A stretch of 64,000 nt of DNA from Escherichia phage phiWec187. Location of the stretch: sequence record LC739536.1; one strand, 5' to 3'. Both the position numbers and the translations under genes were made by a program. Positions 16,528 through 55,882 of this stretch are shown here, piece by piece (positions within the stretch are counted from its first letter, which is position 1; every line of letters begins with the position of its first letter). The notes beneath the pieces were generated by a model. It ran no database searches. It saw only the letters and a list, made by a program, of their open reading frames with translations, and was not told the DNA's origin.

Positions 16528-17340
16528 TTATTTAGTCAAATGATCTTCTATCATTTTTATGAAAGCAGGATTGCTAAAAGCATCTGCGGCCTTTTCTCGA
16601 TAAACAAAGACTCCTCTATCTTCGTAAAGAAGAGTTTCTTCGTAATTAATTCCTGGGTTAACAACAATCATTTTTGTACCCATATTAAGTGCAGGGAATA
16701 ATTCCCAATTAAAATTGATAACTTGGTTTGAACATCCTACTACAACAACCAAATCTTGCATGGTCAAAGTATCAAACAAGTGAGCCATATCTGCATACAA
16801 AGGTGCAGCCTCACCAAAAAATACAACATTAGGCTTCACCCAGTTGTAATCATCTATGTTTATACTGTTGTAACCAATATCTACCAGTGTTTTGTAATCC
16901 CCAGGATGCATACGGTAAACTACTTCAGGAAGATATCCGTGCACGTGGATAACAGAATCCCTGTCTACACCTGCTCGCTCTAGTAGATCATCAACGTTTG
17001 TTGTCAAGTTTACTACTTGGTTAGGATATTCCTTAAACCACTTTGCTATTTGAATATGTGCAGCATTAGGTTGTACATCTTTAAGCTCAACACGTCTTTT
17101 GTTATAAAATTCGTGTGTTTTGGCATACAAATCCATACCGTTTTCGTCTACACCACCAACCACTGGAAGATCTGGTGATGTTCTCACACGATAACCTGCT
17201 TGGAAAGCTCCAATATCGCAGATCTCTTCTAAATCCCATTCTTCCCATAGGGCACGACCACTATCTGTGTCTGTTCGGAATGTTCGAATCCCACTATCTG
17301 CACTTAAACCAGCTCCACTAACAAAAATTACTCTTCGCAT
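16528..17340 (-). CDS. Sir2-family (sirtuin-like) NAD-dependent protein
   Basis: GAGLSADSGIRTFR, PNAAHIQIA, TTNVDDLLERAG, HVHG, KPNVVFFGEAAP, VVVVGCS match Sir2 catalytic-core motifs; no CxxC zinc motif. Confidence 0.75.
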   Translation of the reverse strand: MRRVIFVSGAGLSADSGIRTFRTDTDSGRALWEEWDLEEICDIGAFQAGYRVRTSPDLPVVGGVDENGMDLYAKTHEFYNKRRVELKDVQPNAAHIQIAKWFKEYPNQVVNLTTNVDDLLERAGVDRDSVIHVHGYLPEVVYRMHPGDYKTLVDIGYNSINIDDYNWVKPNVVFFGEAAPLYADMAHLFDTLTMQDLVVVVGCSNQVINFNWELFPALNMGTKMIVVNPGINYEETLLYEDRGVFVYREKAADAFSNPAFIKMIEDHLTK

Positions 17341-18673: not shown

Positions 18674-19663
18674 CTATTCCTCCATACATTTAAGAATATG
18701 TGCAATGACAGGTATAGTCCAACCGTTACCTAACATCTTATATGCTTGTGTGTTACTACTCACTTTAAAGTAGTCATCTGGCACACCTTGCAAACGGCAA
18801 CACTCTTTAACGGTTAACTTTCTATAATGTACGCCTTCACTCAATTTTTCAAAAGCATCTAAATATCTTCCAGGTGGAATGTAAGCTAATAGTACGTCTT
18901 TCGGCACAGTCGTGAGGCAACGAGTTTTTTCACTGTCCTGAACTTCCAAACAATGTACCAAACGATCAGTTTTAGATGTACTACGTTTGCCATTTTCATT
19001 AATTCTACGCCCATATATTGCTGCTGGATAAAAAACCAGTTGTCTGCGACTCTTTTCAAAATACTGTTCTATATTACCACCTTTGGCATAATTTGCATCT
19101 ATGCAATAAGCCTTATCTCTGTCTACAATACTATCATCTTCAATGATATCTTGCAACACTTCATTGGTAATATCCCAAGGTTTTATTTCCCAGTTGCACC
19201 AGTATAAACGTTGTCTATTCTGTGCCGTGAAATCTGCGGAATTAATGAATACGGGATCAACACCTAAGTAACTTGTGATCACGTTTTCCCACTCCACTTT
19301 CATCTTAACGTTTTCAAGCATGAACTTAACATTAGGATTAAACTTTTTAATATGTTCAAGAATTTCAACATATTCGAAGAATAGCTTAGATCGCGGATCT
19401 TGAAAGTTCAAACCCTTACCAGAAGAAGAGAAGCCTTGACACGGACTACCACCTAACAAAAGATCAATTTCTCCCCACGGAATATCCCATTCTCTCCATT
19501 TTGTAACATCACCTAACTGAATAATATCTGGAAAATTTGCTTGGCTTTCAGCTATGGCGAATTTGTCTAATTCTGAAGCATAATACTTATCTACTTCAAT
19601 ACCTGCACTTTTTAGTGCAAGCATTCCTCCTGACATACCATCAAAAAGACTTAAAACTTTCAT
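18674..19663 (-). CDS. DNA (cytosine-5)-methyltransferase
   Basis: motif I LFDGMSGG, motif IV GGSPCQGFSSSG, ENV motif (MLENV). Confidence 0.8.
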   Translation of the reverse strand: MKVLSLFDGMSGGMLALKSAGIEVDKYYASELDKFAIAESQANFPDIIQLGDVTKWREWDIPWGEIDLLLGGSPCQGFSSSGKGLNFQDPRSKLFFEYVEILEHIKKFNPNVKFMLENVKMKVEWENVITSYLGVDPVFINSADFTAQNRQRLYWCNWEIKPWDITNEVLQDIIEDDSIVDRDKAYCIDANYAKGGNIEQYFEKSRRQLVFYPAAIYGRRINENGKRSTSKTDRLVHCLEVQDSEKTRCLTTVPKDVLLAYIPPGRYLDAFEKLSEGVHYRKLTVKECCRLQGVPDDYFKVSSNTQAYKMLGNGWTIPVIAHILKCMEE

Positions 19664-37555: not shown

Positions 37556-38527
37556 TCACCATTTTGTATGGTTCGTCAAAAGTTGACGATGTTGAATCCA
37601 ACCACAGAAGTTTCCACTCCACAAACGATGTTTACGATCCATATGTGTAATACCTTCTTCCCAAGAGGAAGGGAACGGAGGAATATTAATACCACCTTTC
37701 TGTTGTTTTAATCCTGACAAATCCATTTCTTTCATTGGCGTTGCCTGGTGTTCAAACGGGGATGCATGTACCTTTTGTCCAGACAGCAAACGAGAATAGA
37801 TATCCAATGCTTTATCTTTAGTATCATTCAACTTACGATAACTTACCTGAGCGCAACAAGAAGCTGAAATAGCTTTTGCTTCATCTTCTGTCAACATTTT
37901 CTCGTTGGAGAAGGTTTCACCCAAGAAATAACGGATCATACCAGTTTCTGGATCTCGATCACGATTAACGTAAGGTGTATGCCATTCTCCTGGGAAAAGA
38001 AGATATGGTTCAGAAGATTCATACAGTTTTTTAATTTCTTTAGCAAGAGCCTCAATAGTAGGATCTGCATCAGCATCTACGCGCAACCACAAGAAGTTTT
38101 CTAGTTCTGTAGTGGTTACTACAGTCTTCATACGCTGAAATGGTTCTAGTAGGCGGTTTGCAACCTGTTTATGATAACCAGCAAGGGCAAACTCTTCTGC
38201 AAAACGTGCAGCACTTAGTGCAGCCAAGTCCCACCATTCTTTTGCAGTATAACCTGCATCAATCAGGGCATCATGATCTGTGCCTTTATCTTGCATACCT
38301 GGTTGGTTAGCACCAAAACGATAAGGACGTGCTGGAGATTGCCGTACCATTTCAATCAGGGTTTTAACAGGGATAGCTCGACTTGATGCGGCATTACGAG
38401 AAAACAAACGATGCGTCATCAATTCAGAGTGAATGATTCGAGGATATTCAAGTTCAAAGGTAACAATATCCTTACCTTCAGATGTTTGAGAGTGTGCAAT
38501 AATTTTTGCTGAAATAGAATCTGTCAT
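37556..38527 (-). CDS. thyX: flavin-dependent thymidylate synthase
   Basis: ThyX signature MTHRLFSRNAASSRAIP (RHR-x7-S); 323 aa, longer than typical. Confidence 0.75.
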   Translation of the reverse strand: MTDSISAKIIAHSQTSEGKDIVTFELEYPRIIHSELMTHRLFSRNAASSRAIPVKTLIEMVRQSPARPYRFGANQPGMQDKGTDHDALIDAGYTAKEWWDLAALSAARFAEEFALAGYHKQVANRLLEPFQRMKTVVTTTELENFLWLRVDADADPTIEALAKEIKKLYESSEPYLLFPGEWHTPYVNRDRDPETGMIRYFLGETFSNEKMLTEDEAKAISASCCAQVSYRKLNDTKDKALDIYSRLLSGQKVHASPFEHQATPMKEMDLSGLKQQKGGINIPPFPSSWEEGITHMDRKHRLWSGNFCGWIQHRQLLTNHTKW

Positions 38528-38536
38528 TATTTCTCC

Positions 38537-39127
38537 TTAAGGTAGTAAAATACTTTCAATTTCTTCCCACTGATTATCTAAACCAGTGATAATTACATTA
38601 GGAAGTTTCTTTAACTCTTCCAAGTATGGATCTTCGTAAATAGTGTTGAAATATATTTTCAACGTTTCATCTGGAAATAGGACAAGATTTTCAGCCCTAT
38701 CGTCAATAGTTACGTCGCAAGGTAATAAGTATTTTTCTTTTGTTGCGAAAAAGCCATTACCAGATGTTCTACTAAAGTCCACTTTATCTAAAGATCGTGT
38801 TACGTGTCTATATTTAGAACTAAGGTGTCCACCCTTAGTGTGGCTTGCTATAGATATATTAGCTCCATTTGCAATTATACGATGAACAACATCTGTACTA
38901 TTAGGTACTACTCCCATAGTATCATATAGATGTTGGTTATCCCAAAAAGAGTAAGGATCTACACCAAATTGCTTTTTAAAATCAGGAAAATATTTCGTAA
39001 TATCATAATGCACAGTCTTATGTGCCTTATCAAATTTGATATTAGATCTACTTACCGCATTTAACCAATTTAACCATTCTATATCCGCAGGAGCTATTAC
39101 TAAATCCCAATCACATACTAGACGCAT
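38537..39127 (-). CDS. hypothetical protein (possible HAD-like nucleotidase)
   Basis: trimmed to Met39 with AGGAG RBS; C-terminal TIDDRAEN resembles HAD motif; weak. Confidence 0.35.
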   Translation of the reverse strand: MRLVCDWDLVIAPADIEWLNWLNAVSRSNIKFDKAHKTVHYDITKYFPDFKKQFGVDPYSFWDNQHLYDTMGVVPNSTDVVHRIIANGANISIASHTKGGHLSSKYRHVTRSLDKVDFSRTSGNGFFATKEKYLLPCDVTIDDRAENLVLFPDETLKIYFNTIYEDPYLEELKKLPNVIITGLDNQWEEIESILLP

Positions 39128-39674
39128 TATTTCTCCTGTTATAACATTTTCTACACATTGTTTCGTAAATGTCTTCTCCCCCAATAACAATCTGTTCTTT
39201 AGAGTCGATAAGTCTAGCATTAAAAATAGCCTTTCTTCCACATTTACAAATGCTTTTCAATTCTGTAATTGAATCTGCTATGGCTAATAACCGTTCAGAA
39301 CCTTCAAACAATTCTGTAGCAAAATCTGTTTTAAGTCCATAGCAGAATACAGGAATATCGTAATTATCTACCACATCTCCAAGAATGTCAACCATATCTT
39401 TAGTTAGGAATTGTGATTCATCCACAAATACTGCATCTACTGGATTTTCTTTAAGCTGTGTATAAATTTCCAGCATATCTTCTTTTGTTTTAACTGGTTT
39501 TGCTTCCTCTTTAATACCTATCCTAGAAGCAATAGCACAACCAGATCTGGTATCTAAAGCCGAAGTTAAAAGAAGAACTTTCATATTTCTTTCTTTATAG
39601 TTCCAAGCTGTTTGTAAAAGATGTGTGCTTTTACCACTGTTCATTGGACTATATCGGAAATAAAGTTTAGCCAT
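39111..39674 (-). CDS. tdk: thymidine kinase
   Basis: P-loop YSPMNSGKST, C-terminal zinc ribbon CxxC...CxxC; 187 aa. Confidence 0.85.
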   Translation of the reverse strand: MAKLYFRYSPMNSGKSTHLLQTAWNYKERNMKVLLLTSALDTRSGCAIASRIGIKEEAKPVKTKEDMLEIYTQLKENPVDAVFVDESQFLTKDMVDILGDVVDNYDIPVFCYGLKTDFATELFEGSERLLAIADSITELKSICKCGRKAIFNARLIDSKEQIVIGGEDIYETMCRKCYNRRNNASSM

Positions 39675-39719
39675 ATTTTCTCCTCTAACGCTCCCATTTG
39701 TGGGAGCGATAATACTGTA

Positions 39720-40295
39720 TTATTTCTCTTCGTCAAGAAGAATTTTTACTATTTGTTTTCTTCGCTTACTTACTGTACTTTCTGGTGAAATTCCGCGCTT
39801 CGTTAGCCAATTTTTATCCTTTTTAGACTGGCATAAAGCTATCGCTTCTTTCTCCGCTTTTGCTTCCCTGAATGTCATATCGTGCTTGTCAGCATAAGCC
39901 AGGATAGCGTTACACTGCTTACAAACTACACGCAGGTCGTCTTCTGTTACATACAATAGGCGTAAAACAAAACTTGGGATATCTTCATAACAGGTTAATG
40001 TACCTGCTGCATTAATATGGTCTACTTGAAAGTCTTTCATACCTCCTGTATATCCACACAATTCACATTTACAATTCCAAACCTGTTTCGGTTTGCCTGT
40101 TTTCTTATCTAAAACTACATTGCCATCTTTATCCAACCTATCGGCTTTAAATCGTACAGATTGGATCTTTTTTATCTTATTCGGGTGTCTCACCCATGCT
40201 TTCCTTAAGCAACCCCTTAAATATGTATAAAAGGCTGCTTGAGTTTTCCAAGGTGTTCCATCTCCCCAAATAACTTTAGGTTCTTTATTTTCCAA
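39720..40295 (-). CDS. HNH endonuclease
   Basis: CKCELCGY...VDHI...N HNH/zinc motif; TTG start in track. Confidence 0.6.
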   Translation of the reverse strand: MENKEPKVIWGDGTPWKTQAAFYTYLRGCLRKAWVRHPNKIKKIQSVRFKADRLDKDGNVVLDKKTGKPKQVWNCKCELCGYTGGMKDFQVDHINAAGTLTCYEDIPSFVLRLLYVTEDDLRVVCKQCNAILAYADKHDMTFREAKAEKEAIALCQSKKDKNWLTKRGISPESTVSKRRKQIVKILLDEEK

Positions 40296-40479
40296 TAGTG
40301 CTCACCTTTTTAGCTACATAATCTCCAGGTGGAATGTTATACTTAAAGAAAAGCATACGGTCTAAACCAGCTTTACACATGTTTTCTGGGATTGTGATTG
40401 TATATAGGAGTTTATCTCCACGTTTATTGTATATTTTATATACTTCACCCTCTCCGTATTGTTTACCGTGAGAAGCCAT
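40285..40479 (-). CDS. hypothetical protein
   Basis: track ORF. Confidence 0.45.
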   Translation of the reverse strand: MASHGKQYGEGEVYKIYNKRGDKLLYTITIPENMCKAGLDRMLFFKYNIPPGDYVAKKVSTIGK

Positions 40480-40864
40480 CTACACTCTCCTTCAATGTTT
40501 CAATAGCATCTGCTGCTTCAATATACTTACCTTTGTACATTGCTTTTAAAGCCTTACGAACAAGATCATCGTCTGTGTATAAATCAATTAGCTGATTAGC
40601 TAACTCAATTTTTACAGGATTTTTTAAGTTAGGGTAGGCTTCATACAACATATTGTAATACTTATCACTTAATTCTTTTTCAATATGAATAACGTGAATC
40701 GCTTTGTTTAGGTTGATCACACGATCACCTTTGTTTCGACAAGCATACTTAGCTAACTTAGTGAAACAAGGAGTTGCACCAATTAGATATGCAAGTTCCA
40801 AAGGTTGCATACGCATACGTTTGTAGTGATCACCATCAATTTGAATATCCAGTGCTGTAGTCAT
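40463..40864 (-). CDS. hypothetical protein
   Basis: track ORF; GGAGG RBS. Confidence 0.5.
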   Translation of the reverse strand: MTTALDIQIDGDHYKRMRMQPLELAYLIGATPCFTKLAKYACRNKGDRVINLNKAIHVIHIEKELSDKYYNMLYEAYPNLKNPVKIELANQLIDLYTDDDLVRKALKAMYKGKYIEAADAIETLKESVDGFSR

Positions 40865-40873
40865 AAATCCTCC

Positions 40874-40903
40874 AAAAATAAAGGGGCTTTCGCCCCTTTT
40901 TTA
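40874..40903 (-). terminator. terminator hairpin (bidirectional-capable)
   Basis: GGGGCTTTCGCCCC at 40883-40896 flanked by A-run and T-run. Confidence 0.55.
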
Positions 40904-41866
40904 TTAAATTCCAATAACAGTGTTTACACGCTTCTCTTTGCTACGCAAATTAACACGTCCACGAGACAGGCTATTACATGATGTGCATCTTAGCACTTGG
41001 AATGTACTAACCGCTGTTGTGTAAACCTTACCAGGAACAACTTCAAGGTGCTCTTTACCGCAACGAGGACAACGAAGTTTTTCATCGTCATAGAATGCAG
41101 ATACGTTAGGATGTTGTGGAATCCACGCACGAAGTTTGATGTAAAGATCTCTAAGAGAAACAACATCACCATCATTGTATGTTTGCATACGGAAGAAGGC
41201 ATGTCTGTCCCCTTCACAACATGCTTTCCACAAAGGAAAACCTTCATTATCAAGTTTAAAGTTTTCTGTATCAAAATACAAACACATTTCTTTAAGCGCA
41301 TTAGAAGGTAGTGCAAACTGCTTCTTAGCTGCCTTGAGTGTATCAATTACAACATAATGTGATGGTGGCTCCATACCGTGAAAAGCAAAACGTTGGTTAA
41401 TATAAGCCTTATCAAACTTAATACCATTGTGCGCGATCACAATATCTGCATCGTCAAGTAAGTGCCAGAGATCTTGACATAATTCCCAATCATCTGTATG
41501 ATCTATGTCAAACAAAGGGTAATTGCTAAGGTTCTTACCTTCTACTTCCCCTGTTTCTAAGTCAGCAGATGAATAGGAAAGCAAGTAACCTCGACGAATA
41601 ACTTGTTCAGGTGCAATAAAGGCTTTGAAACGTGAGAAGCTATACACAATCTCCGGTGCTGTCTCTACGTCAATAATTTTAATTACTGGCCCACCTTTAT
41701 CTTGCGGAGCACCGCGATGTGGTGAATTTACACGAGCTAAGTAATCATTTACTGTGCTCTTCTTAGTAGAACTTCCCAACACCTCTTGTGCAATCTTACG
41801 CGAAGAATAACCTTGTGCTTTCATAGATACAATCAAGGCTTTCTGTTCGTCTGTTAATTTACTCAA
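40904..41866 (-). CDS. DnaQ-like 3-prime-5-prime exonuclease with N-terminal HTH
   Basis: Exo I IIDVETAP, Exo II AHNGIKFD, Exo III YNDGD; C-terminal CPRC...CTSC zinc ribbon. Confidence 0.5.
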   Translation of the reverse strand: MSKLTDEQKALIVSMKAQGYSSRKIAQEVLGSSTKKSTVNDYLARVNSPHRGAPQDKGGPVIKIIDVETAPEIVYSFSRFKAFIAPEQVIRRGYLLSYSSADLETGEVEGKNLSNYPLFDIDHTDDWELCQDLWHLLDDADIVIAHNGIKFDKAYINQRFAFHGMEPPSHYVVIDTLKAAKKQFALPSNALKEMCLYFDTENFKLDNEGFPLWKACCEGDRHAFFRMQTYNDGDVVSLRDLYIKLRAWIPQHPNVSAFYDDEKLRCPRCGKEHLEVVPGKVYTTAVSTFQVLRCTSCNSLSRGRVNLRSKEKRVNTVIGI

Positions 41867-42897
41867 TGTTCCTCCTGCTCTGAAATATATGCTTGTAGCA
41901 TACTTTCAAAAGTTGTTTCATCATTCGCCCAACGTTTCATATATACCAACTGAAAAATTGTCTCTATCCATTCATCAGTTGTCATTTCTACTTCTTCACC
42001 ATCCCAAGAAGTAAATTTAACGCCATCTGGGAACCATTCATAATACTGATCTTTAACTGTCTGAAAAAGTTCAGCCTGTGTTTTACATTTGGAAATAAGA
42101 TTAAAGCAAGTAATATCTCCAAACTTAACATCGAAATCTTGGTAAGGTCGAATACTATCTGTCTTATCGCCCATTAGCATTTGATAAGCTAACCAGTAAC
42201 TACCCCAACCCTTAATTTCTTTTTTCTTACCTTTTTCTACGATCCAGATATCACCGATAGATTCATCAATCAGAATAATACAAGGATTTTTATAAACACC
42301 ATCCTCTTTATAAAAGTTAAAGAGTAAACTTGGTGTGTGCAAGCTATCTTTGTCGATAGATGCTACAATATGAGAAAACTTACCAGTTTCCTTGTAGGCT
42401 TTATACCCTGCATATCCATAGATTTCTAAAGCATCGTCTGCCTCAATACCAGTAACAACGTCACCGTTATGTTTTTCAACTAGATAATCTTTAGTATCTG
42501 ATAAATGGATTGGTCTTAAATCTGATCGTTCTGATTTATATTCTTTTGGCATTTTGAAAGAATGCCGGAAGGTTTTTCCTACCCCGATGACACCGCAATA
42601 CTTTTGAAGTTTTAGGTGATCCATCATCTGGGTTATTTTTGTCTTTGCAGCTTGAAACGTAAAAGAAATATTATCTGGGACTATTTGAACATCTTTTATT
42701 TCAAAATCTTCTCTAGAGAACAACTTCTTACCAGCAGCTTCGCGTTGCGCGTTAAGTGCTCCTAACCATCCTCCAATATTTTTTGAAGATTTACCCCAAA
42801 AATCTGTTCTTGTTTCAAACTCTTTTACATTACCGGAAGCCTTGTGTACAGCGTGGATTTTTCTTTGTTCTAAAGCTGAAGACGCTTGGAACGCCAC
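41863..42897 (-). CDS. 5-prime-3-prime exonuclease / flap endonuclease-like
   Basis: GIEADD and LMGDKTDSI resemble FEN catalytic and H3TH motifs; N-terminal region atypical. Confidence 0.45.
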   Translation of the reverse strand: MAFQASSALEQRKIHAVHKASGNVKEFETRTDFWGKSSKNIGGWLGALNAQREAAGKKLFSREDFEIKDVQIVPDNISFTFQAAKTKITQMMDHLKLQKYCGVIGVGKTFRHSFKMPKEYKSERSDLRPIHLSDTKDYLVEKHNGDVVTGIEADDALEIYGYAGYKAYKETGKFSHIVASIDKDSLHTPSLLFNFYKEDGVYKNPCIILIDESIGDIWIVEKGKKKEIKGWGSYWLAYQMLMGDKTDSIRPYQDFDVKFGDITCFNLISKCKTQAELFQTVKDQYYEWFPDGVKFTSWDGEEVEMTTDEWIETIFQLVYMKRWANDETTFESMLQAYISEQEEH

Positions 42898-44485: not shown

Positions 44486-45208
44486 TTAAGCAATGATTGC
44501 TGCGATATTAGGTTTAACAAAGGTAGATGGTTTCATAATTTTACCTTTGTCATCAAAGAATACGTACACCTTTTGAACTTCGTTATATACAGCATGTACC
44601 CCAGTATAAGAACCTTCTGCACGATCTTTGCTTCGCATCTCGATAGCATCGCACTCTTTTTCAAGAGCTTCAATAATATCCTTAGTTTCCCAAATAGCTA
44701 GGAGTTGCTTCTTGGTAGGATACTTGGACTCATTGCTATTCAACACTTCACGCATAACCTTCTTCTCGTTATAAACAGAACGCACCAAAGTATCTCGTGC
44801 CATACGGGTAAGTGTAAGAGACATTAAGGCAAATTGCAAGTCATTTTCTACCATTTTATCAAATTCAATGATAACATCGTAAATGTTCTCTGCCAGAACA
44901 TCTCCTGTTGGCATTTCCAGAGCTTTATCAACACCTTCTTTACCAAAGAACATAAACGCCAGGTAGGATGCTACCACAAAAATATCTGCTGCTGCATCAA
45001 GTAATTCAACGTGATCATTTTCCTGTGCTGCTGCTTGAAACTCTTTAAGTTCTTCTCGTACAAAAGAAAGTTGAGCTTCAAACATCTCTTGAGTAAATTC
45101 TGGAGTTACTCCACCGCGTGCCTTAGCATTCCAAGCAACAATTTGATCGGCAGCTTTGATAAAGAAGCTATTGTCCACTTTTACTTGTTTGAAAAAATTC
45201 TCGATCAT
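44486..45208 (-). CDS. MazG-like NTP pyrophosphohydrolase (tentative)
   Basis: EELKEFQAA...ELLDAAADI resembles MazG/HisE all-alpha motif; weak. Confidence 0.35.
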   Translation of the reverse strand: MIENFFKQVKVDNSFFIKAADQIVAWNAKARGGVTPEFTQEMFEAQLSFVREELKEFQAAAQENDHVELLDAAADIFVVASYLAFMFFGKEGVDKALEMPTGDVLAENIYDVIIEFDKMVENDLQFALMSLTLTRMARDTLVRSVYNEKKVMREVLNSNESKYPTKKQLLAIWETKDIIEALEKECDAIEMRSKDRAEGSYTGVHAVYNEVQKVYVFFDDKGKIMKPSTFVKPNIAAIIA

Positions 45209-45217
45209 TGTTTCTCC

Positions 45218-45424
45218 TTATTTAAAATATTGTTCTAACAAAACACTAATGCGAACTACCGATTCGCCCATATACGCCCCAGCACAGAGGAAAACAACAA
45301 ATCTACAAAAATTGCAGTACCATTTGTCCACTGGAAACGAGGCTAACATTATAATTGCAATAGCAATTAACATCATAAGAACTGTTACTAATACCATATT
45401 ACCTCTTACTCTGCTGGTTCCCAA
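45218..45424 (-). CDS. small membrane protein
   Basis: hydrophobic stretch VLVTVLMMLIAIAIIMLASF; overlaps ligase 3-prime end. Confidence 0.3.
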   Translation of the reverse strand: MGTSRVRGNMVLVTVLMMLIAIAIIMLASFPVDKWYCNFCRFVVFLCAGAYMGESVVRISVLLEQYFK

Positions 45425-46521
45425 GTACCTGGAATCATCTTACGTAAACGGACACCTGTTGGTTTCGTAGGTATTCCACCATCGGAAAACTCTTCATACT
45501 CAATCTCAACAAATTTACCAATTAACATTTCGGCATTTTCTGCTTTACGATAGTTAATGGTTTCATCTGAATCCTTACGCATCAGGAATTCGACTACTTT
45601 ACCATTTTCCATCTCTCCTGTCAATACCCCGTCACCATTTTTATCACGCTTTGCACTTACCACTTTAACTTCAAGCGTCTGACGTGGTTTACGTTTAATA
45701 ACATCATAAGAACGTTTATCGAATTCGTAAACACCTTTTGCGTTACGATACACCACACCTTCCGCTTTCTCGCGTAGGGCTTTTGCATAGAAAGCCTCAA
45801 ACTGTTCTTGGTTTTCAATGTACTCTGTATGTACTACACAAATAAGTTCATCTAAACCTTTATCTTCAACAACTTCTTTTAGAGCAGCCAAAACTTGAAC
45901 CCTCTTCTCAAATGGTACAGATGCCACAGGAACATCATATACATAGTATTTAAGAAGCGGTGTGTTAGCATTATGCTTTTTCCACGCACTATTAATTTGT
46001 TGAAGGCTAAGGACACCCAAGCCAGCAAAAACTTCACCGTCAAGAGGATGACCAACTACTTCTTTAATGAAGGTTGGAATTTCTTCCCAGTGAGGTGGAA
46101 GTTTATATACCTCCCCAGCTTTAGATAAACATTCACCTTGCATGTTAATCATTGAACGTAGACCATTCAATTTATATTGTGCATAACCTGGGAACAAAAC
46201 ACGGTCAGCATAATCTTTATAATCCTGACATTTCATGGGTGTGGAAGGAACATGGTTTTCAGCTTCCTCTTTTGTTTTATAATACCCATTCTTAAGTTGC
46301 TTTGTCCATTTGGCAAGAGCTTCTATTTCAGCTTGTTCTTCTGCTGTTGTTTCATTTGAGCGACCAATATTTTTAGGTTCTGCCGTATAAGATTTGCTAG
46401 TGATCTTTCCACCTAATTGACCATGAGCAACAGTTACAACACTACCTTCGGTATAGACTGACCACTGTCTAATTTTACCTGTAGAAGTTTTACCATACAA
46501 TGTAGGATTAGTTTGTTTCAT
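45406..46521 (-). CDS. ATP-dependent polynucleotide ligase
   Basis: trimmed to Met17 with GGAGG RBS; motif I KLNG, III DGEVF, IV EGVVYR, V KRK. Confidence 0.6.
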   Translation of the reverse strand: MKQTNPTLYGKTSTGKIRQWSVYTEGSVVTVAHGQLGGKITSKSYTAEPKNIGRSNETTAEEQAEIEALAKWTKQLKNGYYKTKEEAENHVPSTPMKCQDYKDYADRVLFPGYAQYKLNGLRSMINMQGECLSKAGEVYKLPPHWEEIPTFIKEVVGHPLDGEVFAGLGVLSLQQINSAWKKHNANTPLLKYYVYDVPVASVPFEKRVQVLAALKEVVEDKGLDELICVVHTEYIENQEQFEAFYAKALREKAEGVVYRNAKGVYEFDKRSYDVIKRKPRQTLEVKVVSAKRDKNGDGVLTGEMENGKVVEFLMRKDSDETINYRKAENAEMLIGKFVEIEYEEFSDGGIPTKPTGVRLRKMIPGTWEPAE

Positions 46522-46711
46522 CTTTAACCTCCAGTTGCGAAAGAACCCATTTAGCCATTTCAATTTCACCGTGTAGTCTGCCTAGTTCATAGGCATCATC
46601 AATATTACCACCAGTGTAATCATCCACCATAAAGTAAGGATCTTCACTACTGTTAGGCGCGTTTGCAATTCTCGTTAGTTCTTCAATAAATGTCATAGTT
46701 AACCTTACCAA
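46508..46711 (-). CDS. hypothetical protein
   Basis: track ORF. Confidence 0.45.
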   Translation of the reverse strand: MVRLTMTFIEELTRIANAPNSSEDPYFMVDDYTGGNIDDAYELGRLHGEIEMAKWVLSQLEVKDETN

Positions 46712-46929
46712 TTATACACAAGAGTTTGAATTTCTTCCATCAAATCTTCAAGATCTGTATCAACATATTCAGAAGATGTTGCCATAAAGTATGTAATCAT
46801 TATAAACCCTTCCGAAGAAAGGGCATCAAGGATATCATTAAACATATCTTCCATTTCAGTATTCTCACCAAATGAGAATAACATTTGTTGGTCTTCGCTT
46901 ACACCTTTAACATAGATGGCTGTACTCAT
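46705..46929 (-). CDS. hypothetical acidic protein
   Basis: track ORF. Confidence 0.45.
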   Translation of the reverse strand: MSTAIYVKGVSEDQQMLFSFGENTEMEDMFNDILDALSSEGFIMITYFMATSSEYVDTDLEDLMEEIQTLVYNW

Positions 46930-46932
46930 ATA

Positions 46933-47253
46933 TTAATCCTTAAGACGTTCATTTAAATCTGCAATAACATCACCTAAATCTTCACATTCCAGTGTTAACT
47001 CTGAAACTTGTCCACTCAAATAACAAACTTCTTCATTTAGATCTGAAATAATGTTTTCTAATGAATCTACTTGGTCATCATATGAACGTTTTGTTTCTTC
47101 AAGTTCTTCCGTAAGATCATTAATCAAACGGAGCAAAGATAAGATATAACCGTCTCCTGTCTCGTTCCTCCACTCACTTCCGTAGCGATAAATAATAATT
47201 TCACCATTATCAACTACTGTAAAATACTTACCTTCACCAGAATAAATTTCCAT
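46933..47253 (-). CDS. hypothetical coiled-coil protein
   Basis: track ORF; heptad-like acidic region. Confidence 0.45.
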   Translation of the reverse strand: MEIYSGEGKYFTVVDNGEIIIYRYGSEWRNETGDGYILSLLRLINDLTEELEETKRSYDDQVDSLENIISDLNEEVCYLSGQVSELTLECEDLGDVIADLNERLKD

Positions 47254-47262
47254 AAACTCTCC

Positions 47263-47667
47263 TTATTGTAGCTTAAGTGAACTGCGAAGACGTTCCTCTT
47301 GCTGATCACGAATATGTTGTGGAACCTCATGAATTGAATCGTTACCGTGCCTATTCTCCACAACTAAAGAAATAACTTGATAACCAAACTCTTCGGCAAG
47401 AGTTAAATAAGGTTTAAGTTCTTTTTCTGTAGTAGAGGTATTAGAAACAATAATCTTTTCAACACCATACTGCATATATTTTTGTACTTTGACACGACAC
47501 CATTGGTGTGCTTTATGGATATTCTCTTGTTTCCACTCATACACACCATCTTCAGTGTAGTGGTATTGATCTGCCTCACAAATAGGCCAATGATTTTCAG
47601 AGATAATTTCTGCTACTGTAGATTTACCTGCACCTGAAACACCACGTAAAATGATAAGTTGTTTCAT
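47263..47667 (-). CDS. polynucleotide 5-prime-kinase (T4 Pnk kinase-domain-like)
   Basis: LIILRGVSGAGKST P-loop and IIVSNTSTTEKELKPYLTLAEEFGYQV track T4 Pnk N-terminal domain; GGAGG RBS. Confidence 0.7.
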   Translation of the reverse strand: MKQLIILRGVSGAGKSTVAEIISENHWPICEADQYHYTEDGVYEWKQENIHKAHQWCRVKVQKYMQYGVEKIIVSNTSTTEKELKPYLTLAEEFGYQVISLVVENRHGNDSIHEVPQHIRDQQEERLRSSLKLQ

Positions 47668-48600
47668 TTAGCCTCCAAAGAAGTTTTCTATTTCTTTACG
47701 TCGCTCTTGTGGATCTAGAGCAGCCCATTGAACCTTCGTAAAGTTATTTCGAAGCCATTCTAGCAAAGTATAATATTCTTCGTCAACAATTTGTTTAGCA
47801 TTGTTTGGGTTGTCCCAAATCATATCCCACTTCTTATTGCCACCACGCATAAGGAACTTCTTAGCAAGATAGTATGGTGACTTAATCTTTAAGAGTAAGT
47901 TAAACGGATAGTTTGTTTCACGAACAACAAAGCCTTCGTGTCGACAATGTTTAGACATTTCAACAACATCTGAAAATTTAATCATCGGATAAACTTCAGG
48001 ACGTTTAAATTTTGTAATAGATGCAATCCCATCAAGAACACCTTCAGGTAACATGAAACTTGTTCCATCAAGATTTTGAATTCTTGCTCCAATTAAGTAT
48101 GCGCCTGGTTCTTCTTCGACAATATGTGGATCAGAAGGATCACAGATTTCAAAAAGAAAAGTTGCTTTTGCACTCTCTGTCCACTTAATGAAATACTCTA
48201 TGTCGTCACACTCGGAAACAATACGGTTCTTTGCCATAATTGCGAAATCTGATTCTAGGCTCCCTGTTGTTGATACAACAAGTTTCCCTTTGTACACACC
48301 TACAGATGCCATAAAACCGTTTACTTTACGGACAGCATCTACAATTTCGTCTGCTGGAAGATCTGTACCATTTTCAAAACGATTAAAGATTTTAGTAAAA
48401 GGCCAAATAACAACATTGTCTTCTGAGTCAACAACCAACCCACGACAATCTAAAAGTCGTTTGTCAACGTTCCACAAATTATCCCAGAATACATTGTTTT
48501 TGTATTTAAGCACAGCAAGACCAGCATACTCTCCAGATTTAACTTCTTTTTTATGCACTAAACCTTTTGCAATCAGGTCATCACAATTGAACTTAGCCAC
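47668..48600 (-). CDS. RNA ligase (T4 Rnl1 family)
   Basis: LLDCRGLVVD, motif I KVNG, FLFEICDP, EGFVVR, KIKSPYY align with T4 Rnl1 blocks (from memory); GTG start. Confidence 0.7.
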   Translation of the reverse strand: MAKFNCDDLIAKGLVHKKEVKSGEYAGLAVLKYKNNVFWDNLWNVDKRLLDCRGLVVDSEDNVVIWPFTKIFNRFENGTDLPADEIVDAVRKVNGFMASVGVYKGKLVVSTTGSLESDFAIMAKNRIVSECDDIEYFIKWTESAKATFLFEICDPSDPHIVEEEPGAYLIGARIQNLDGTSFMLPEGVLDGIASITKFKRPEVYPMIKFSDVVEMSKHCRHEGFVVRETNYPFNLLLKIKSPYYLAKKFLMRGGNKKWDMIWDNPNNAKQIVDEEYYTLLEWLRNNFTKVQWAALDPQERRKEIENFFGG

Positions 48601-48601
48601 C

Positions 48602-49153
48602 TTAATCTCCTTTGATTATCTTATGATGGTCTACAACAACAATATCACGCTTATCCATAATAGATATGATTTCGTCAAAATGCAAGATTTTCCCGTGTGC
48701 ATCCCAACCAACATCCAACATCTTCCCATACAAATGATCAGGGAATGATCCGTGAGAGTGTCCGTGTAGCATGATTGATCCATGCCCTTGTTTATTCCAT
48801 GCAGCCATAGGGTAATGGCTTAAGACGAAAAACAGCTTCTGATATTTCACTTCGTCATAATAAATCACTTCTCCATACTCTGCAAGCACTTTTCTGTGTT
48901 TACTGTAATCATGGTTCCCAACACAGTAAGTAATATCCCCTTGGAGACGGGAAGCAATCTTACGGGTATCTTCTTCAGTCCCGAAACAGAAGTCCCCAAG
49001 ATGGTACATCTTTACTCCTGGTGTTGTGGCACATTTATTCCATGCTTCGATCAGTGCTTCTGTCATATGCTCCATATCTTCCCACGGGCGATATTCAGGA
49101 GCAAACTCTCGGATACGTTTGTGCATAAAATGCAAATCACTTGTAATAAACAT
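48602..49153 (-). CDS. calcineurin-like metallophosphoesterase
   Basis: DLHF, GDF, GNHD, GHSHG motifs; first gene of three-gene operon with ligase and kinase. Confidence 0.65.
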   Translation of the reverse strand: MFITSDLHFMHKRIREFAPEYRPWEDMEHMTEALIEAWNKCATTPGVKMYHLGDFCFGTEEDTRKIASRLQGDITYCVGNHDYSKHRKVLAEYGEVIYYDEVKYQKLFFVLSHYPMAAWNKQGHGSIMLHGHSHGSFPDHLYGKMLDVGWDAHGKILHFDEIISIMDKRDIVVVDHHKIIKGD

Positions 49154-49515
49154 TAGTATAATCCCTCGCTGAATAGTTCACTGTTGTGACCATTTCTTTC
49201 GTAGTTAATTTGTTTGGCGTTATCTGCAATGATATAAGCATCTTTGCGACTCCACCAATTATAATACTGATCAATAAACCCTTGATTATCAGGTAAGCAA
49301 AACAGTTTATCAATCAATCCTGCATCTTTTAAAACATTAAGTTGTGCAGATAGTACAGGATTTGCATGCCTAACACAAGGAATAATTAACTCTTCACCAT
49401 TGTTGAGAATATACTTATTCGCAGCGCATACTATAACACGTTGAGCATAGTGATCCTCACCAATCCAAGTAAGAGGTTGGTAACAAATATCATGTTGATT
49501 AGTAGCGCACATCAA
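49153..49515 (-). CDS. hypothetical protein
   Basis: track ORF; stop overlaps phosphoesterase start. Confidence 0.5.
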   Translation of the reverse strand: MMCATNQHDICYQPLTWIGEDHYAQRVIVCAANKYILNNGEELIIPCVRHANPVLSAQLNVLKDAGLIDKLFCLPDNQGFIDQYYNWWSRKDAYIIADNAKQINYERNGHNSELFSEGLY

Positions 49516-49670
49516 TTTTCTCCGTACTCTTTTAATCTATCAGCGAAAAAACTGTAGTCAGGAAGTAAAAGATCATTACTCGTATTGCTCCAGTTTTCTT
49601 CCTCTTCATAGATAAAACGCCCTTCATCCTCTTCTTGCTCTGACCAAACTGAGTAATGCATAATACCTAC

Positions 49671-50045
49671 TTAATAGTTAACACGTTTAATTTCAACACC
49701 ATAGGATGAAATAAAATTTTCCTTAGCTAACATATATTTACCAGCAGCAGAAGGATTTGATGTATGAACATAGATAGTTTTAAGAGCATCCCATTCACCC
49801 GCGTACAACATACACTCTACATCTAAGAATGCATGATATCCTTCCTGATCTTCTCCAAGATCATTATCGAAGTGTATCTCTGAGATATCATTGAAATTAT
49901 CTTCATCTGAAATAAAAGATAACCAATCCTCAAAAGATTTTAACCAAATGGCATCCTCATAACCATAATCTTTAGGATCTCTTAAATCGTCTAACCAAAG
50001 AATTTTAGCCACTATTAACCCCCTTCCTGTTTCTCTTCTTTCCAA
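49671..50045 (-). CDS. hypothetical protein
   Basis: track ORF. Confidence 0.45.
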   Translation of the reverse strand: MERRETGRGLIVAKILWLDDLRDPKDYGYEDAIWLKSFEDWLSFISDEDNFNDISEIHFDNDLGEDQEGYHAFLDVECMLYAGEWDALKTIYVHTSNPSAAGKYMLAKENFISSYGVEIKRVNY

Positions 50046-52047: not shown

Positions 52048-52941
52048 ATGAAAGTTAGTATTCTACATGGTGTTGACTGTTATGTTACTGATGTAGACGT
52101 TAAAGTCTTTACATTCTCTGGTGGAGAACAACATGTTCAACTAGATACGAATCTATCAGGTTTCAATCATGCTACAGACAGAATCTTACTCTCTTTAGAA
52201 GTAAGATCTGCTAAAGACTTGATGACTTTGGTTATGACTAAGAATGCATTGGACAATATGCTATATCATAAACCATATTGTGTTGATTTACTCATGCTGT
52301 ATGTACCGTATGCACGACAAGACAGAGTGTGTGAGCCTGGGGAAGCATTCGGAGTTAAAGCCTTTGCTTCTATAATTAATTCATTAAATTTCTCACGTGT
52401 TATCGTTGCTGATCCACATAGTGATGTTACTCCAGCAGTGTTTGACAGACTCTGTGTAATACCTCAAGAAGAGATTGCTTACGAAACTTTAAAGTGGAAG
52501 TTACGTATGGAGAATTTTGCTCTTGTTAGTCCTGATGGTGGTGCTCTTAAGAAAATATTTAAATTATCTAAGAAAATGTCTTTAGATGTGTTCTGTGCAG
52601 AGAAGGTTAGAGATACTGCAACAGGTGCTATTGTTCGTACAGACATTTCTGTACAGGATTTCAATAAGCGTAACCTGATGATCGTAGATGATATCTGTGA
52701 CGGCGGTAGAACTTTTATTGAATTGGCTAAAGTGCTACGTGCTCGTAACGCAGGTAAGATTGAGTTATATGTTACACACGGTATCTTTTCTAAAGGTCTT
52801 AAAGAGTTAAGTGAGCACTTTGACTGCATTCATTCTCTTAATGTGTGGGAAGATAACATCCAAGAAGATTCCGGTGTTCTTGTTAAGAATCAGTCAGATT
52901 TGCAACAACAAATTGTATCTCCATACGTGTGGAATTTTTAA
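52048..52941 (+). CDS. Prs-like phosphoribosyl pyrophosphokinase
   Basis: hallmark PYARQDR loop and VDDICDGGRT (PRPP-binding-like); AAGGAG RBS. Confidence 0.75.
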   Translation: MKVSILHGVDCYVTDVDVKVFTFSGGEQHVQLDTNLSGFNHATDRILLSLEVRSAKDLMTLVMTKNALDNMLYHKPYCVDLLMLYVPYARQDRVCEPGEAFGVKAFASIINSLNFSRVIVADPHSDVTPAVFDRLCVIPQEEIAYETLKWKLRMENFALVSPDGGALKKIFKLSKKMSLDVFCAEKVRDTATGAIVRTDISVQDFNKRNLMIVDDICDGGRTFIELAKVLRARNAGKIELYVTHGIFSKGLKELSEHFDCIHSLNVWEDNIQEDSGVLVKNQSDLQQQIVSPYVWNF

Positions 52942-52951
52942 ATAATAAGTG

Positions 52952-52986
52952 TTGACAATAGGGAGTATGCTTAGTAAGATACTCCC
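52952..52986 (+). promoter_or_regulatory. sigma70-like promoter with overlapping inverted repeat
   Basis: -35 TTGACA 52952-52957, 17 bp spacer, -10 TAAGAT 52975-52980; arms GGGAGTAT (52961-68) and ATACTCCC (52979-86). Confidence 0.5.
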
Positions 52987-53012
52987 ACACTAACAAACAA
53001 GGAGACATAACT

Positions 53013-54746
53013 ATGAATATTTTTGCACCTTTTGCTACTGATTGGTATAAACCTGGTCACAAGCAGATGTACAACCAAAATACAAAACTCATTTTCTCTA
53101 ATTTAACTCCTCGTAATGATAAAAACTTTGCACACTATGCAGATCGTGAAGCACGTGGTGTAATTGTTTTAGGTATTCGTCGAGCAGTTACTGATGCTCT
53201 TGTAACTATGTGGGATGGCTTCTTTAAAATGTCTCGTAGTGCAGCAGTAAATAAATTTTATCGTATGTCTAAGAATGCATTAGGTGCTTCTGCTCCTTCT
53301 GCTGAATGTTGGGGAGAATTGCACGATTTAGGTTATCTTCCGCTAGAAGTTCGATCTCTGCCAGAAGGTGTTTTGTGTCCTATTGGTGTTCCTGTGTTTA
53401 CTGTGCATAACACTTTAGAAAAATTCTTTTGGTTAACTAACTATGTGGAAACACTCTTGTCAGATGAAACTTGGAAGACAATGACTAATGCCACAGCAGC
53501 TTTTCAGTATAAGCGTATCGCTATGGCGTATGCGATGGCAACGTGTGATAACATTGATCACGTTAATTTCCAGTGTCATGACTTTAGCCTACGTGGTTTA
53601 AGCAATATCGAAGATGGTTATAAGAGTGGTATCGCTCATTTGGCATCTTTCACAGGTACAGATAATATTCTGGCTATTGAAACTGTGCATGATTACTATG
53701 GTATTGATTATGATCAGTTTGTTGCAGGTTCTATTCCGGCAACAGAACATTCAGTAGCAACGACTAACATTGGAGCTATTGTTGAAGATCTGAAGAAACA
53801 TTTCCCACATCTTAAAGATGATGTTGATGGGCTTCGTTATGTAGCAGAGAAAGAGTTTCTTCGCCGCTATATTGAAGAAATTGTTCCAGAAGGTTTTTGT
53901 TCATATGTAGCAGATTCTTATGATTACTGGGCTGTCTTGACTCGCATTCTGGTAGAATTGAAAGAGTCCATTATGTCACGAAATGGTCGTCTTGTTATTC
54001 GTCCAGACTCAGGAGATCCGGTTAAAGTTGTTGCAGGATACAATGTTGAATCTTTTGATAACTATGAAGACCTTTTAAATAATGGTATTGCTACAGCCAC
54101 TGAAGTAGTACATTTGGCTGATGTTAATAAGTATTACAATGTTCTTCAGGATTGCAGTGTTGCTGATTGTATTGATGAAACTTATGAGATTCCTTATTGT
54201 GAAGCAGTAGGTTCTATTCAAATCCTTTGGGAAGTGTTTGGTGGTACTATCAACCGAAAAGGCTACAAGGTTCTTGATCAGCACATCGGTATGATTTATG
54301 GTGATTCTATTACTGTTGAACGAGAACACGAGATCTTACGCCGACTGAAGAAGAAAGGTTTTGCAGCTTCCAATATTGTATTTGGTGTTGGTAGTTATAC
54401 TTATCAGTTCAATACACGAGATACTTTTGGTTTTGCTGTTAAAGCAACAGGTAGTATCATCGGTGAACACGAAATTTTGGTAAGTAAGGAGCCTAAAACT
54501 GATCCTGGTAAACGCTCTGCAAAAGGTTTTATTAAGGTTGTTAAGGATACAAATGGTAAACTTTCTCTTGTGGATAATCTTTCTTTTAAAGATATCCAAG
54601 ATGAAGACAATGAGTTAAAAGTTATCTTCAGGGATGGTACGGTTATTACACCACAAGTAGAAGGACGTGATGAAACATTTACTGATATCCGTAACCGTGT
54701 TGATGTAGAGGTTCTTCGTACTATGGGAACCATCCAGGTTGACTAA
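53013..54746 (+). CDS. nadV: nicotinamide phosphoribosyltransferase-like (Nampt/NadV family)
   Basis: ATDWYK, LPEG, VFTVHNT...WLTNYVETLL, HDFSLRG, FTGTDN, SIPATEHS, IRPDSGDP, KEPKTDPGKRSAKG parallel Nampt blocks. Confidence 0.8.
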   Translation: MNIFAPFATDWYKPGHKQMYNQNTKLIFSNLTPRNDKNFAHYADREARGVIVLGIRRAVTDALVTMWDGFFKMSRSAAVNKFYRMSKNALGASAPSAECWGELHDLGYLPLEVRSLPEGVLCPIGVPVFTVHNTLEKFFWLTNYVETLLSDETWKTMTNATAAFQYKRIAMAYAMATCDNIDHVNFQCHDFSLRGLSNIEDGYKSGIAHLASFTGTDNILAIETVHDYYGIDYDQFVAGSIPATEHSVATTNIGAIVEDLKKHFPHLKDDVDGLRYVAEKEFLRRYIEEIVPEGFCSYVADSYDYWAVLTRILVELKESIMSRNGRLVIRPDSGDPVKVVAGYNVESFDNYEDLLNNGIATATEVVHLADVNKYYNVLQDCSVADCIDETYEIPYCEAVGSIQILWEVFGGTINRKGYKVLDQHIGMIYGDSITVEREHEILRRLKKKGFAASNIVFGVGSYTYQFNTRDTFGFAVKATGSIIGEHEILVSKEPKTDPGKRSAKGFIKVVKDTNGKLSLVDNLSFKDIQDEDNELKVIFRDGTVITPQVEGRDETFTDIRNRVDVEVLRTMGTIQVD

Positions 54747-55534: not shown

Positions 55535-55610
55535 GGTTCCATAGCTCACTGACGAGAGCGCACACCTCATAAGTGTCGAGGGCAGGGATTGTAACCCTGG
55601 GGAACCACCA
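55535..55610 (+). tRNA. tRNA-Met/Ile2 (anticodon CAT)
   Basis: acceptor GGTTCC/GGAACC, anticodon loop CTCATAA, encoded CCA; T-loop ATTGTAA atypical. Confidence 0.65.
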
Positions 55611-55641
55611 TTTAAAAGGAGGTGCTATGCATCTCCTATAT

Positions 55642-55728
55642 GCAAGTGTGGTGGAATTGGTGATACACATTGTGCTTAAAACGCAACGCTTAAATGCTTG
55701 AGGGTTCGAATCCCTCCACTTGCACCAA
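55642..55728 (+). tRNA. tRNA-Leu (anticodon TAA)
   Basis: acceptor GCAAGTG/CACTTGC, loop CTTAAAA, long variable arm, T-loop TTCGAAT, CCA. Confidence 0.8.
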
Positions 55729-55742
55729 AACCTAAAAATATC

Positions 55743-55771
55743 TTGACATTTACTTAGTTTTTTGTTATAGT
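55743..55771 (+). promoter_or_regulatory. sigma70-like promoter inside tRNA array
   Basis: -35 TTGACA 55743-55748, 17 bp spacer, -10 TATAGT 55766-55771. Confidence 0.55.
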
Positions 55772-55782
55772 TACTATGAAAA

Positions 55783-55864
55783 CGGGGTGTATCTCACCTG
55801 ACTTCTAATCAGGCGTTAACCGAGTAATTGGAGTATGCAGGTTCGAATCCTGTCACCCCGGCCA
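55783..55864 (+). tRNA. atypical tRNA-like gene (possible Arg, TCT)
   Basis: perfect acceptor CGGGGTG/CACCCCG, T-arm GCAGG-TTCGAAT-CCTGT, CCA; CCTGA-CTTCTAA-TCAGG arm too close to 5-prime end for a canonical cloverleaf. Confidence 0.4.
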
Positions 55865-55882
55865 AAAAGTTTTAAAAACTAC

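Follow-up and report, generated by a model that had tools for sequence, protein, structure and literature searches.

Escherichia phage phiWec187 carries three adjacent minus-strand genes that probably encode a split heal-and-seal RNA repair pathway, made up of a 5'-kinase, a phosphoesterase and an Rnl1-type RNA ligase. The genes lie in a stretch of 64,000 nucleotides (sequence record LC739536.1), which was analysed at its full length and is referred to here as the window. The trio comprises a P-loop kinase of 134 residues (47263..47667), a ligase of 310 residues with a GTG start (47668..48600), and a metallophosphoesterase (MPE) of 183 residues (48602..49153); these correspond to gp095, gp096 and gp097 of Escherichia phage phi92, respectively. 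The three open reading frames (ORFs) occupy exactly the interval, 47263-49153, given by an initial annotation made from the letters alone, and the motifs that it named are present and invariant across homologues. Its heal-and-seal logic is now supported by profile and fold searches, by linkage of the genes in 42 lineages, and by proteins in which kinase and ligase, or kinase, MPE and ligase, are fused.

The genes themselves are not new. They are essentially those of phi92 (genus Justusliebigvirus), to which the trio stretch is 98% identical. The phi92 RefSeq record labels gp095 an ATPase, gp096 a hypothetical protein and gp097 a phosphoesterase; the corresponding genes of a close relative, the BASEL phage Bas61, are annotated as polynucleotide kinase, RNA ligase and putative phosphoesterase. 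The type of neighbourhood in which they lie has been predicted in silico (PMC9503650), and the finding as it stands confirms that published prediction.

In the proposed pathway, a metal-independent ribonuclease (such as a host anticodon nuclease or a toxin) would cut tRNA or another RNA. The MPE, perhaps with a neighbouring cREC protein, would open and remove the 3'-terminal phosphate (2',3'-cyclic or 3'-), and the kinase would phosphorylate the 5'-OH with Asp33 as the general base. The ligase, adenylylated on Lys92, would then seal the 3'-OH/5'-phosphate nick. The substrates and biological role are drawn by analogy with T4 Pnkp and Rnl1 acting against PrrC; the chemistry of each step, and a counter-defence role complementing the tRNA genes of the phage, would follow the same model.

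Catalytic motifs and structural relatives of the three proteins

The motifs KVNG, FEIC, EGFVV and LKIKS can be read directly in the ligase, which belongs to the Pfam family RNA_lig_T4_1 (E 4e-14). A profile built from 26 homologues matches T4 Rnl1 in the PDB (2c5u, E 1.3e-10) over Rnl1 residues 51-250 and has no sequence-level match to Trl1. A profile was required for this search, as a single-sequence phmmer search of the ligase against the PDB returned nothing relevant. Residues K92-V-N-G95, F150-E151, E222-G223 and K238/K240 are invariant in the 26 homologues. Nucleotidyltransferase motifs I, III, IV and V are all present and aligned to the catalytic motifs of T4 Rnl1 (KVNG with KEDG, FEIC with FEFV, EGFVV with EGYVA, and LKIKS with FKIKS). 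According to mutagenesis by the Shuman laboratory, the T4 motifs carry Lys99, Glu159, Glu227/Gly228 and Lys240/Lys242, whose counterparts here are K92, E151, E222/G223 and K238/K240.

The AlphaFold2 model of the ligase (predicted local distance difference test score, pLDDT, 89.7) is likewise closest to T4 Rnl1, the best Foldseek match (E 7.5e-13, template modelling (TM) score 0.63). The top PDB matches are 2c5u, 5tt6 and 9do4 (E about 1e-12, TM 0.62-0.64), followed by fungal Trl1-LIG domains (E about 1e-11, TM 0.65-0.68); T4 Rnl1 and Trl1-LIG both rank above archaeal ligases, T4 Rnl2 and the Naegleria ligase. The C-terminal region of about 65 residues is entirely helical and contains conserved basic residues, and the profile alignment ends before it, at Rnl1 residue 250. 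Profile, Pfam and fold searches thus bear out the assignment to the T4 Rnl1 family, and gp096 is predicted to be an ATP-dependent RNA ligase of the Rnl1/Trl1-LIG group.

The kinase (Pfam AAA_33, E 1.8e-10; PHROG 2071, E 4.8e-58) has the P-loop motif GVSGAGKST. Its profile, built from 28 sequences from related loci, has T4 Pnk (1ly1) as its best PDB match (E 2.6e-9), covering only Pnk residues 1-144, in agreement with the resemblance to the T4 Pnk kinase domain noted at the outset. Next come Capnocytophaga Pnkp1 (E 3e-8), the Rhizopus kinase 9d8a (E 1e-7), which we take to be a Trl1-type kinase, a protein labelled only as a P-loop protein (E 1.5e-7), and the 171-residue Clostridium thermocellum (C. 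thermocellum) chains 4gp7/4gp6 (E 1.6e-7), presumably the CthPnkp kinase domain. An adenylate kinase (E 2.1e-7) completes the best six; mammalian PNKP (E about 8e-7) ranks below them, with a tRNA(Sec) kinase. The top of the list is thus made up mostly of polynucleotide kinases. An hhalign comparison with a Pnkp-type kinase domain gives a probability of 96.7%. Residues R8, G9, G12, G14, K15, S16, T17 and D33 are invariant among homologues, and D33 is aligned to Asp35 of T4 Pnk.

The MPE contains the motifs SDLHF, LGDF, GNHD and HGHSHG, so that the set of calcineurin-like binuclear-metal motifs (D-x-H, G-D, G-N-H-[DE], H, G-H and G-H-x-H) is complete. D6, H8, G53, D54, G79, N80, H81, H113, G131, H132 and H134 are invariant in 32 homologues. 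The protein falls in PHROG 547 (phosphoesterase, E 1.7e-54), and its single-sequence Pfam score of 21 bits lies under the 27-bit cut-off. The profile matches the Aquifex protein aq_1665 (1xm7) with an E value of 1.3e-21 and shows no match at E<=1 to the Pnkp phosphatase 4j6o or the lambda phosphatase 1g5b. By sequence, the MPE is a member of an aq_1665-like clade and is not of the Pnkp/lambda-phosphatase type. It is proposed, by analogy, as a candidate end-healing enzyme for 2',3'-cyclic-phosphate and 3'-phosphate ends. Both parts of the original description, a calcineurin-like MPE and its separation from the kinase in place of a fused HAD phosphatase, proved correct: the MPE is a stand-alone ORF, and none of the block ORFs scanned (44.5-51.6 kb) revealed a HAD phosphatase domain, the kinase itself being only 134 residues long.

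Linkage and fusion of the genes in phages and cyanobacteria

The three genes follow one another without overlap. Reading the DNA directly, a single nucleotide separates the MPE stop codon from the ligase start, and the kinase ATG comes directly after the ligase stop with no spacer at all; Shine-Dalgarno-like AAGGAG and GGAGG sequences are located within the preceding genes. The overlapping start and stop codons initially ascribed to the trio are found only further upstream, as one-base overlaps at the gp099/gp098 and gp098/MPE junctions.

The association of the genes extends far beyond the phi92 group. Scanning IMG/VR with the ligase profile yielded 80 loci whose ligases are 40-97% identical to that of the window, and these were collapsed at 70% ligase identity into 42 clusters, here called lineages; kinase and MPE relatives were located in the loci by tblastn with the window proteins. 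Of the 80 loci, 72 have a relative of the kinase and 64 one of the MPE, almost all of them located on the ligase strand and within a few kilobases. Counted by ligase cluster, the kinase is present in 38 of 42, the MPE in 37, and both in 34. By a rough estimate of chance, a single-copy gene in a genome of 100-150 kb would fall inside a 14-kb span about once in ten. Gene order is shuffled (MPE-ligase-kinase in 12 clusters, kinase-ligase-MPE in 17) and spacing is tight: the median gap between kinase and ligase in the IMG/VR loci is 1 nucleotide, and MPE and ligase are at most 50 nucleotides apart in 26 of the 64 loci.

Kinase and ligase are joined in one ORF of about 420 residues in 11 viral loci, on contigs L043, L048, L055, L057, L059-L061, L064 and L066-L068, which represent two clusters; in none of these loci was an MPE detected within 7 kb. 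What looked like a fusion of MPE and ligase in another locus (L011) was rejected, as its translation contains an in-frame stop.

Ligase homologues also occur in bacterial genomes, in 29 loci of Leptolyngbya-type cyanobacteria. The gene architecture was read in one of these 29, from Leptolyngbya sp. PCC 7375 (L103, 4768-6906), where a chromosomal protein of 712 residues has the domain order AAA_33-Metallophos-RNA_lig_T4_1 and is encoded beside RtcB. Its kinase and phosphatase are of the C. thermocellum Pnkp type (4gp6, E 3.5e-11; 4j6o, E 2.5e-24). The alignment of its ligase domain with the phage profile runs from end to end and takes in the short helical tail (hhalign E 2.9e-42, 31% identity). 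No structure of a ligase domain appears among the PDB matches of the fusion protein, and no Hen1 was seen among its neighbours. The protein resembles a Pnkp variant with a swapped ligase. For the trio as a single pathway, the fusions and the shuffled yet lasting linkage are the strongest argument.

Neighbouring genes and competing readings

The trio lies within a long co-directional block on the minus strand. Upstream are, in order, a cREC gene (phi92 gp100; 49671..50012, with an alternative TTG start at 50045; Pfam PF20274 cREC_REC, E 1.4e-14, 54.9 bits against a 27-bit cut-off), an acidic gp099-like ORF of 49 residues (49512..49661) that is annotated in phi92 and conserved only in phi92-like loci, and a gp098-like small protein of 119 residues (49153..49512) that may be an accessory gene. 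Downstream are three small ORFs, an ATP-dependent DNA ligase (phi92 gp091; 45406..46521; Pfam DNA_ligase_A_M, E 1.9e-11; PHROG 114, E 2.2e-75), and a MazG-like nucleotide pyrophosphohydrolase (phi92 gp089; 44486..45208; Pfam PRA-PH, E 3.2e-7; PHROG 671). Within the block, no terminator-like site sets the trio apart from the adjacent genes. A scan of 44-52.2 kb found 33 promoter-like sites against 26.7±4.6 in shuffled controls and 7 terminator-like sites against 4.1±2.2, neither above chance. The term "three-gene operon" used initially is therefore too narrow for a unit that includes the cREC gene and other accessory genes, and with counts so close to the shuffled controls the operon boundaries are not definable.

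An NCBIfam scan of five proteins gave no useful match. Close homologues of gp098 are confined to phi92/rV5-like phages, and a copy with 37% identity stands beside the ligase in a distant locus (L073). The domain of about 95 residues that it contains is widespread (1122 representative clusters); ten longer homologues gave no match to Pfam, and the label "anti-restriction nuclease" that gp098 bears in some records is unsupported. Further downstream on the same strand, 37556-42897 holds ThyX-like, thymidine kinase, HNH-like, DNA polymerase exonuclease subunit and exonuclease ORFs, and an NT5C-like HAD protein whose score is below the cut-off. At 18674-19663 (minus strand), a 329-residue ORF has, by motif only, the PCQGFS signature typical of DNA cytosine-C5 methyltransferases.

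Several observations weigh against a split RNA repair pathway. Aquifex aq_1665, the nearest relative of the MPE with a solved structure, is itself uncharacterised, and the clade of the MPE has no characterised member. Compared with the Pnkp-type phosphatase domain, the MPE gives an hhalign probability of only 11%, so that kinship is limited to the superfamily motifs. The MPE is also not obligatory: it is absent from the fusion lineages, and Pfam revealed no substitute phosphoesterase in the four MPE-less loci scanned (the fusion locus L055 and three with a separate ligase). The C-terminal domain of the ligase is not aligned with that of T4 Rnl1. The block includes DNA ligase, RdgC and exonuclease genes, which leave room for a role at DNA ends. 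Finally, no biochemical or genetic work was found in the literature on phi92/rV5-type genes of the three families.

The competitor that fares best, although an unlikely one, is repair of the fungal and plant type linked to nicotinamide adenine dinucleotide (NAD+). Here cREC or the MPE would convert the cyclic phosphate to a 2'-phosphate, the ligase would seal 2'-phosphate/3'-OH ends in the manner of Trl1, the sirtuin of the phage would use NAD+ to remove the 2'-phosphate from the junction, and the resulting ADP-ribose would be recycled to NAD+ by the nearby Adps/Namat-like genes. The fold of the ligase is consistent with this scheme, since its TM scores for Trl1-LIG are as high as that for T4 Rnl1. 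So is the cREC gene within the block; cREC, which also occurs among the neighbours of ligase homologues, is predicted to be a cyclic-phosphate-opening enzyme (a cyclic phosphodiesterase) of RNA repair, and a KptA-like role has been proposed for the rV5-type sirtuin (Iyer et al., 2022; PMC9503650). In rV5-like loci the sirtuin adjoins the kinase: in one of them (L005), a sirtuin of 258 residues comes directly after it. The window encodes a sirtuin of 270 residues with 55% identity to that protein (16528..17340, minus strand; Pfam SIR2, E 2.8e-22; motif GAGLSADSGIRTFR).

Divergent from the repair block lies a pair of plus-strand genes (52048..54746), one Prs/Adps-like and one NAMPT/Namat-like (Pfam Pribosyltran/Pribosyl_synth and NAPRTase), with the Pfam architecture of Adps and Namat in the NAD+ reconstitution pathway NARP1. 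Homologues of at least one of these NAD+ genes accompany the ligase at a distance of up to 7 kb in 40 of the 80 loci, or 21 of the 42 clusters, in several arrangements; 13 clusters have both. Macro, Nudix and SIR2 domains recur among 150 neighbouring ORFs classified with Pfam, together with HAD "Swiss-army-knife" RNA-repair and Rnl2 domains. The phosphatase associated with NARP1, Adpp, is a Macro-domain homologue of yeast Poa1p, a tRNA-splicing enzyme. A phage phosphatase that extends NARP1 was accordingly considered as an identity for the MPE and rejected, the NARP1 phosphatase being this Macro-domain protein.

Other evidence speaks against the NAD+-linked scheme. The sequence profile of the ligase matches T4 Rnl1 and not Trl1. 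The trio is general, whereas homologues of the sirtuin (11 of 80 loci) and cREC (10 of 80) occur only in the 13 loci closest to the window (L003-L014 and L016), and SIR2 accounts for just 3 of the 150 neighbouring ORFs. The sirtuin of the window is 30 kb from the trio, with none among the ORFs scanned with Pfam and PHROGs at 37.5-51.6 kb. The MPE would be expected to leave 2'-OH/3'-OH ends, and the NAD+ genes may do no more than occupy the same anti-defence island as the repair genes. The linkage between the ligase and NAD+ genes, of which no mention was found in PMC9503650, could reflect such an island; an NAD+-dependent step in the fungal manner is a less likely explanation and ranks below it.

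A fuller version, in which the trio is the core of an RNA repair circuit that the phage couples to NAD+ in a manner reminiscent of fungal tRNA splicing, is also unlikely. In such a circuit, cREC or the MPE would open the cyclic phosphate to a 2'-phosphate and the Rnl1/Trl1-like ligase would seal the break; the sirtuin, as an analogue of Tpt1, would strip the 2'-phosphate using NAD+. The ADP-ribose-phosphate would then be dephosphorylated and rebuilt to NAD+ by the NARP1-like Adps/Namat genes. If true, the circuit would account for the presence of NAD+-reconstitution genes within 7 kb of the ligase in half of the lineages.

DNA end processing is improbable. On this account the kinase and phosphoesterase would clean 5'-OH/3'-phosphate DNA breaks, as PNKP does, for sealing during replication or recombination. 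The kinase profile does match mammalian PNKP, the block includes the ATP-dependent DNA ligase, RdgC and exonuclease genes, and DNA ligase is the most frequent family among the neighbours (13 of 150 ORFs). The conserved and at times fused partner, however, is an Rnl1-type RNA ligase rather than a DNA ligase, the cyanobacterial fusion adjoins RtcB, and two RNA-repair domains, cREC and HAD_SAK, are nearby.

Still less probable is that the MPE, the kinase or both act on small molecules (nucleotide second messengers, ADP-ribose phosphates or NAD+ intermediates) in an anti-signalling or NAD+ pathway, their proximity to the ligase reflecting no more than a common anti-defence island. In favour of this, nucleotides are usual substrates of MPEs, genes like those of NARP1 often lie nearby, there are phage phosphatases that feed NARP1, and the nearest solved relative of this MPE has no assigned function. 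The known NARP1 phosphatase, however, is a Macro domain and not an MPE. The MPE goes with the ligase (in 37 of 42 lineages, with the close spacing in 26 of 64 loci described above) and not with the NAD+ genes (21 of 42). Two lineages have the kinase fused to the ligase, and the solved structures nearest to the kinase are for the most part polynucleotide kinases.

The weakest competitor is a ligase that mainly helps to build the virion, by attaching tail fibres as T4 gp63 does in its second role, or that routinely matures the RNAs of the phage, and does not repair damage inflicted by defences. The PHROG family bears the label "RNA ligase and tail fiber protein attachment catalyst" and a T4 transposon screen found the N-terminal domain of RNA ligase A to be needed even on a laboratory host, but all catalytic residues of the ligase are invariant, its homologues occur in cyanobacterial chromosomes, and the close conservation with two end-healing enzymes and the fusions would be left unexplained.

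A split RNA repair pathway thus remains the preferred reading, and the tRNA genes of the phage bear on its possible role. An array at 55535..58453 on the plus strand contains 15 tRNAs by ARAGORN and one further tRNA-like element by Rfam (55783-55861, plus strand; 38.6 bits), which ARAGORN missed. This element has a vestigial D-arm of about 4 nucleotides, an anticodon loop CUUCUAA (UCU, Arg) and a long variable region. The initial annotation rightly reported a tRNA array; its figure of about 17 genes next to the trio becomes 15-16 genes, which lie 6.4 kb away on the opposite strand, with the divergent intergenic region and the Prs-like/NAMPT-like pair in between.

Defences that cleave tRNA are common in bacteria and include PrrC, RloC, HEPN tRNases, Cas13, PARIS and retron-associated nucleases. 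A known phage response is to supply replacement tRNAs. To our knowledge, the T4 pathway is the only experimentally established phage repair pathway; a second module, built on another plan and found widely, would establish repair as a counter-defence strategy of general use. Replacement of cleaved tRNAs by phage tRNAs has been discussed (PMC10264068), and array and trio together would allow the phage to respond to tRNA-targeting defences both by replacement and by repair. The presence of the trio in tractable Escherichia coli phages (phi92 and the BASEL phage Bas61) makes this directly testable.

Comparison with known repair systems

The block is of the same neighbourhood type as the sirtuin-centred one of rV5 and Proteus phage Mydo described by Iyer, Burroughs, Anantharaman and Aravind (2022; PMC9503650, section 3.7.3), which contains a tRNA ligase, cREC, a kinase, MazG and a sirtuin, joined in some cases by a calcineurin-like phosphoesterase. 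In phiWec187, the T4-like tRNA ligase, cREC, nucleotide kinase, MazG and calcineurin-like phosphoesterase are all encoded on one strand within 44486-50012. The arrangement differs in three respects from the rV5-type gene order, which is seen directly in L005. The sirtuin gene is outside the block, and three small ORFs stand where it would be; cREC and the MPE are separated by gp098 and gp099; and cREC is upstream of the MPE, whereas in rV5-like loci it lies between ligase and kinase.

Fungal and plant Trl1 (LIG-KIN-CPD) resembles the trio in its heal-and-seal logic, in the fold of its ligase domain, and in its kinase, if 9d8a is indeed of the Trl1 type. It differs in having a 2H cyclic phosphodiesterase domain, which is lacking here, and its similarity to the phage ligase is not detected by sequence profile.

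Bacterial Pnkp, of the C. thermocellum Pnkp/Hen1 system, is built from the same three domain superfamilies, and the cyanobacterial fusion joins a CthPnkp-like kinase and phosphatase to a ligase of the phage clade. The parallel with Pnkp/Hen1 drawn by the initial annotation holds at this superfamily level only. In contrast to the single polypeptide of Pnkp, the phage has three separate ORFs with stop codons between them; its ligase is Rnl1-like, and its MPE has the aq_1665-like character and not the lambda-phosphatase-like motifs (GDxHG / GDxVDRG / GNHE). A Hen1 partner was also not detected, as no methyltransferase domain was found among all but the smallest ORFs at 44.5-51.6 kb, scanned with Pfam and PHROGs; the only methyltransferase-like ORF noticed is that at 18674-19663, of the DNA C5 type by its motif.

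A close parallel is with T4 Pnkp (pseT) and Rnl1 (gp63), the pair deployed against PrrC. The same three activities are implied, and the catalytic Lys/Glu/Lys residues of the ligase and the Asp of the kinase are conserved in phiWec187. In contrast to T4 Pnkp, the kinase stands alone and has no fused HAD (DxDxT) phosphatase, the phosphoesterase being a separate binuclear MPE. The ligase, at 310 residues, ends in the short helical domain of about 65 residues, unaligned with the T4 C-domain; in T4 Rnl1 a C-terminal domain of about 120 residues confers tRNA specificity. The pseT and gp63 genes are dispersed in the T4 genome, whereas the repair genes of this phage are contiguous. By its sequence, the trio is a predicted member of the known heal-and-seal kind with a distinctive split architecture and an MPE of the aq_1665 type.

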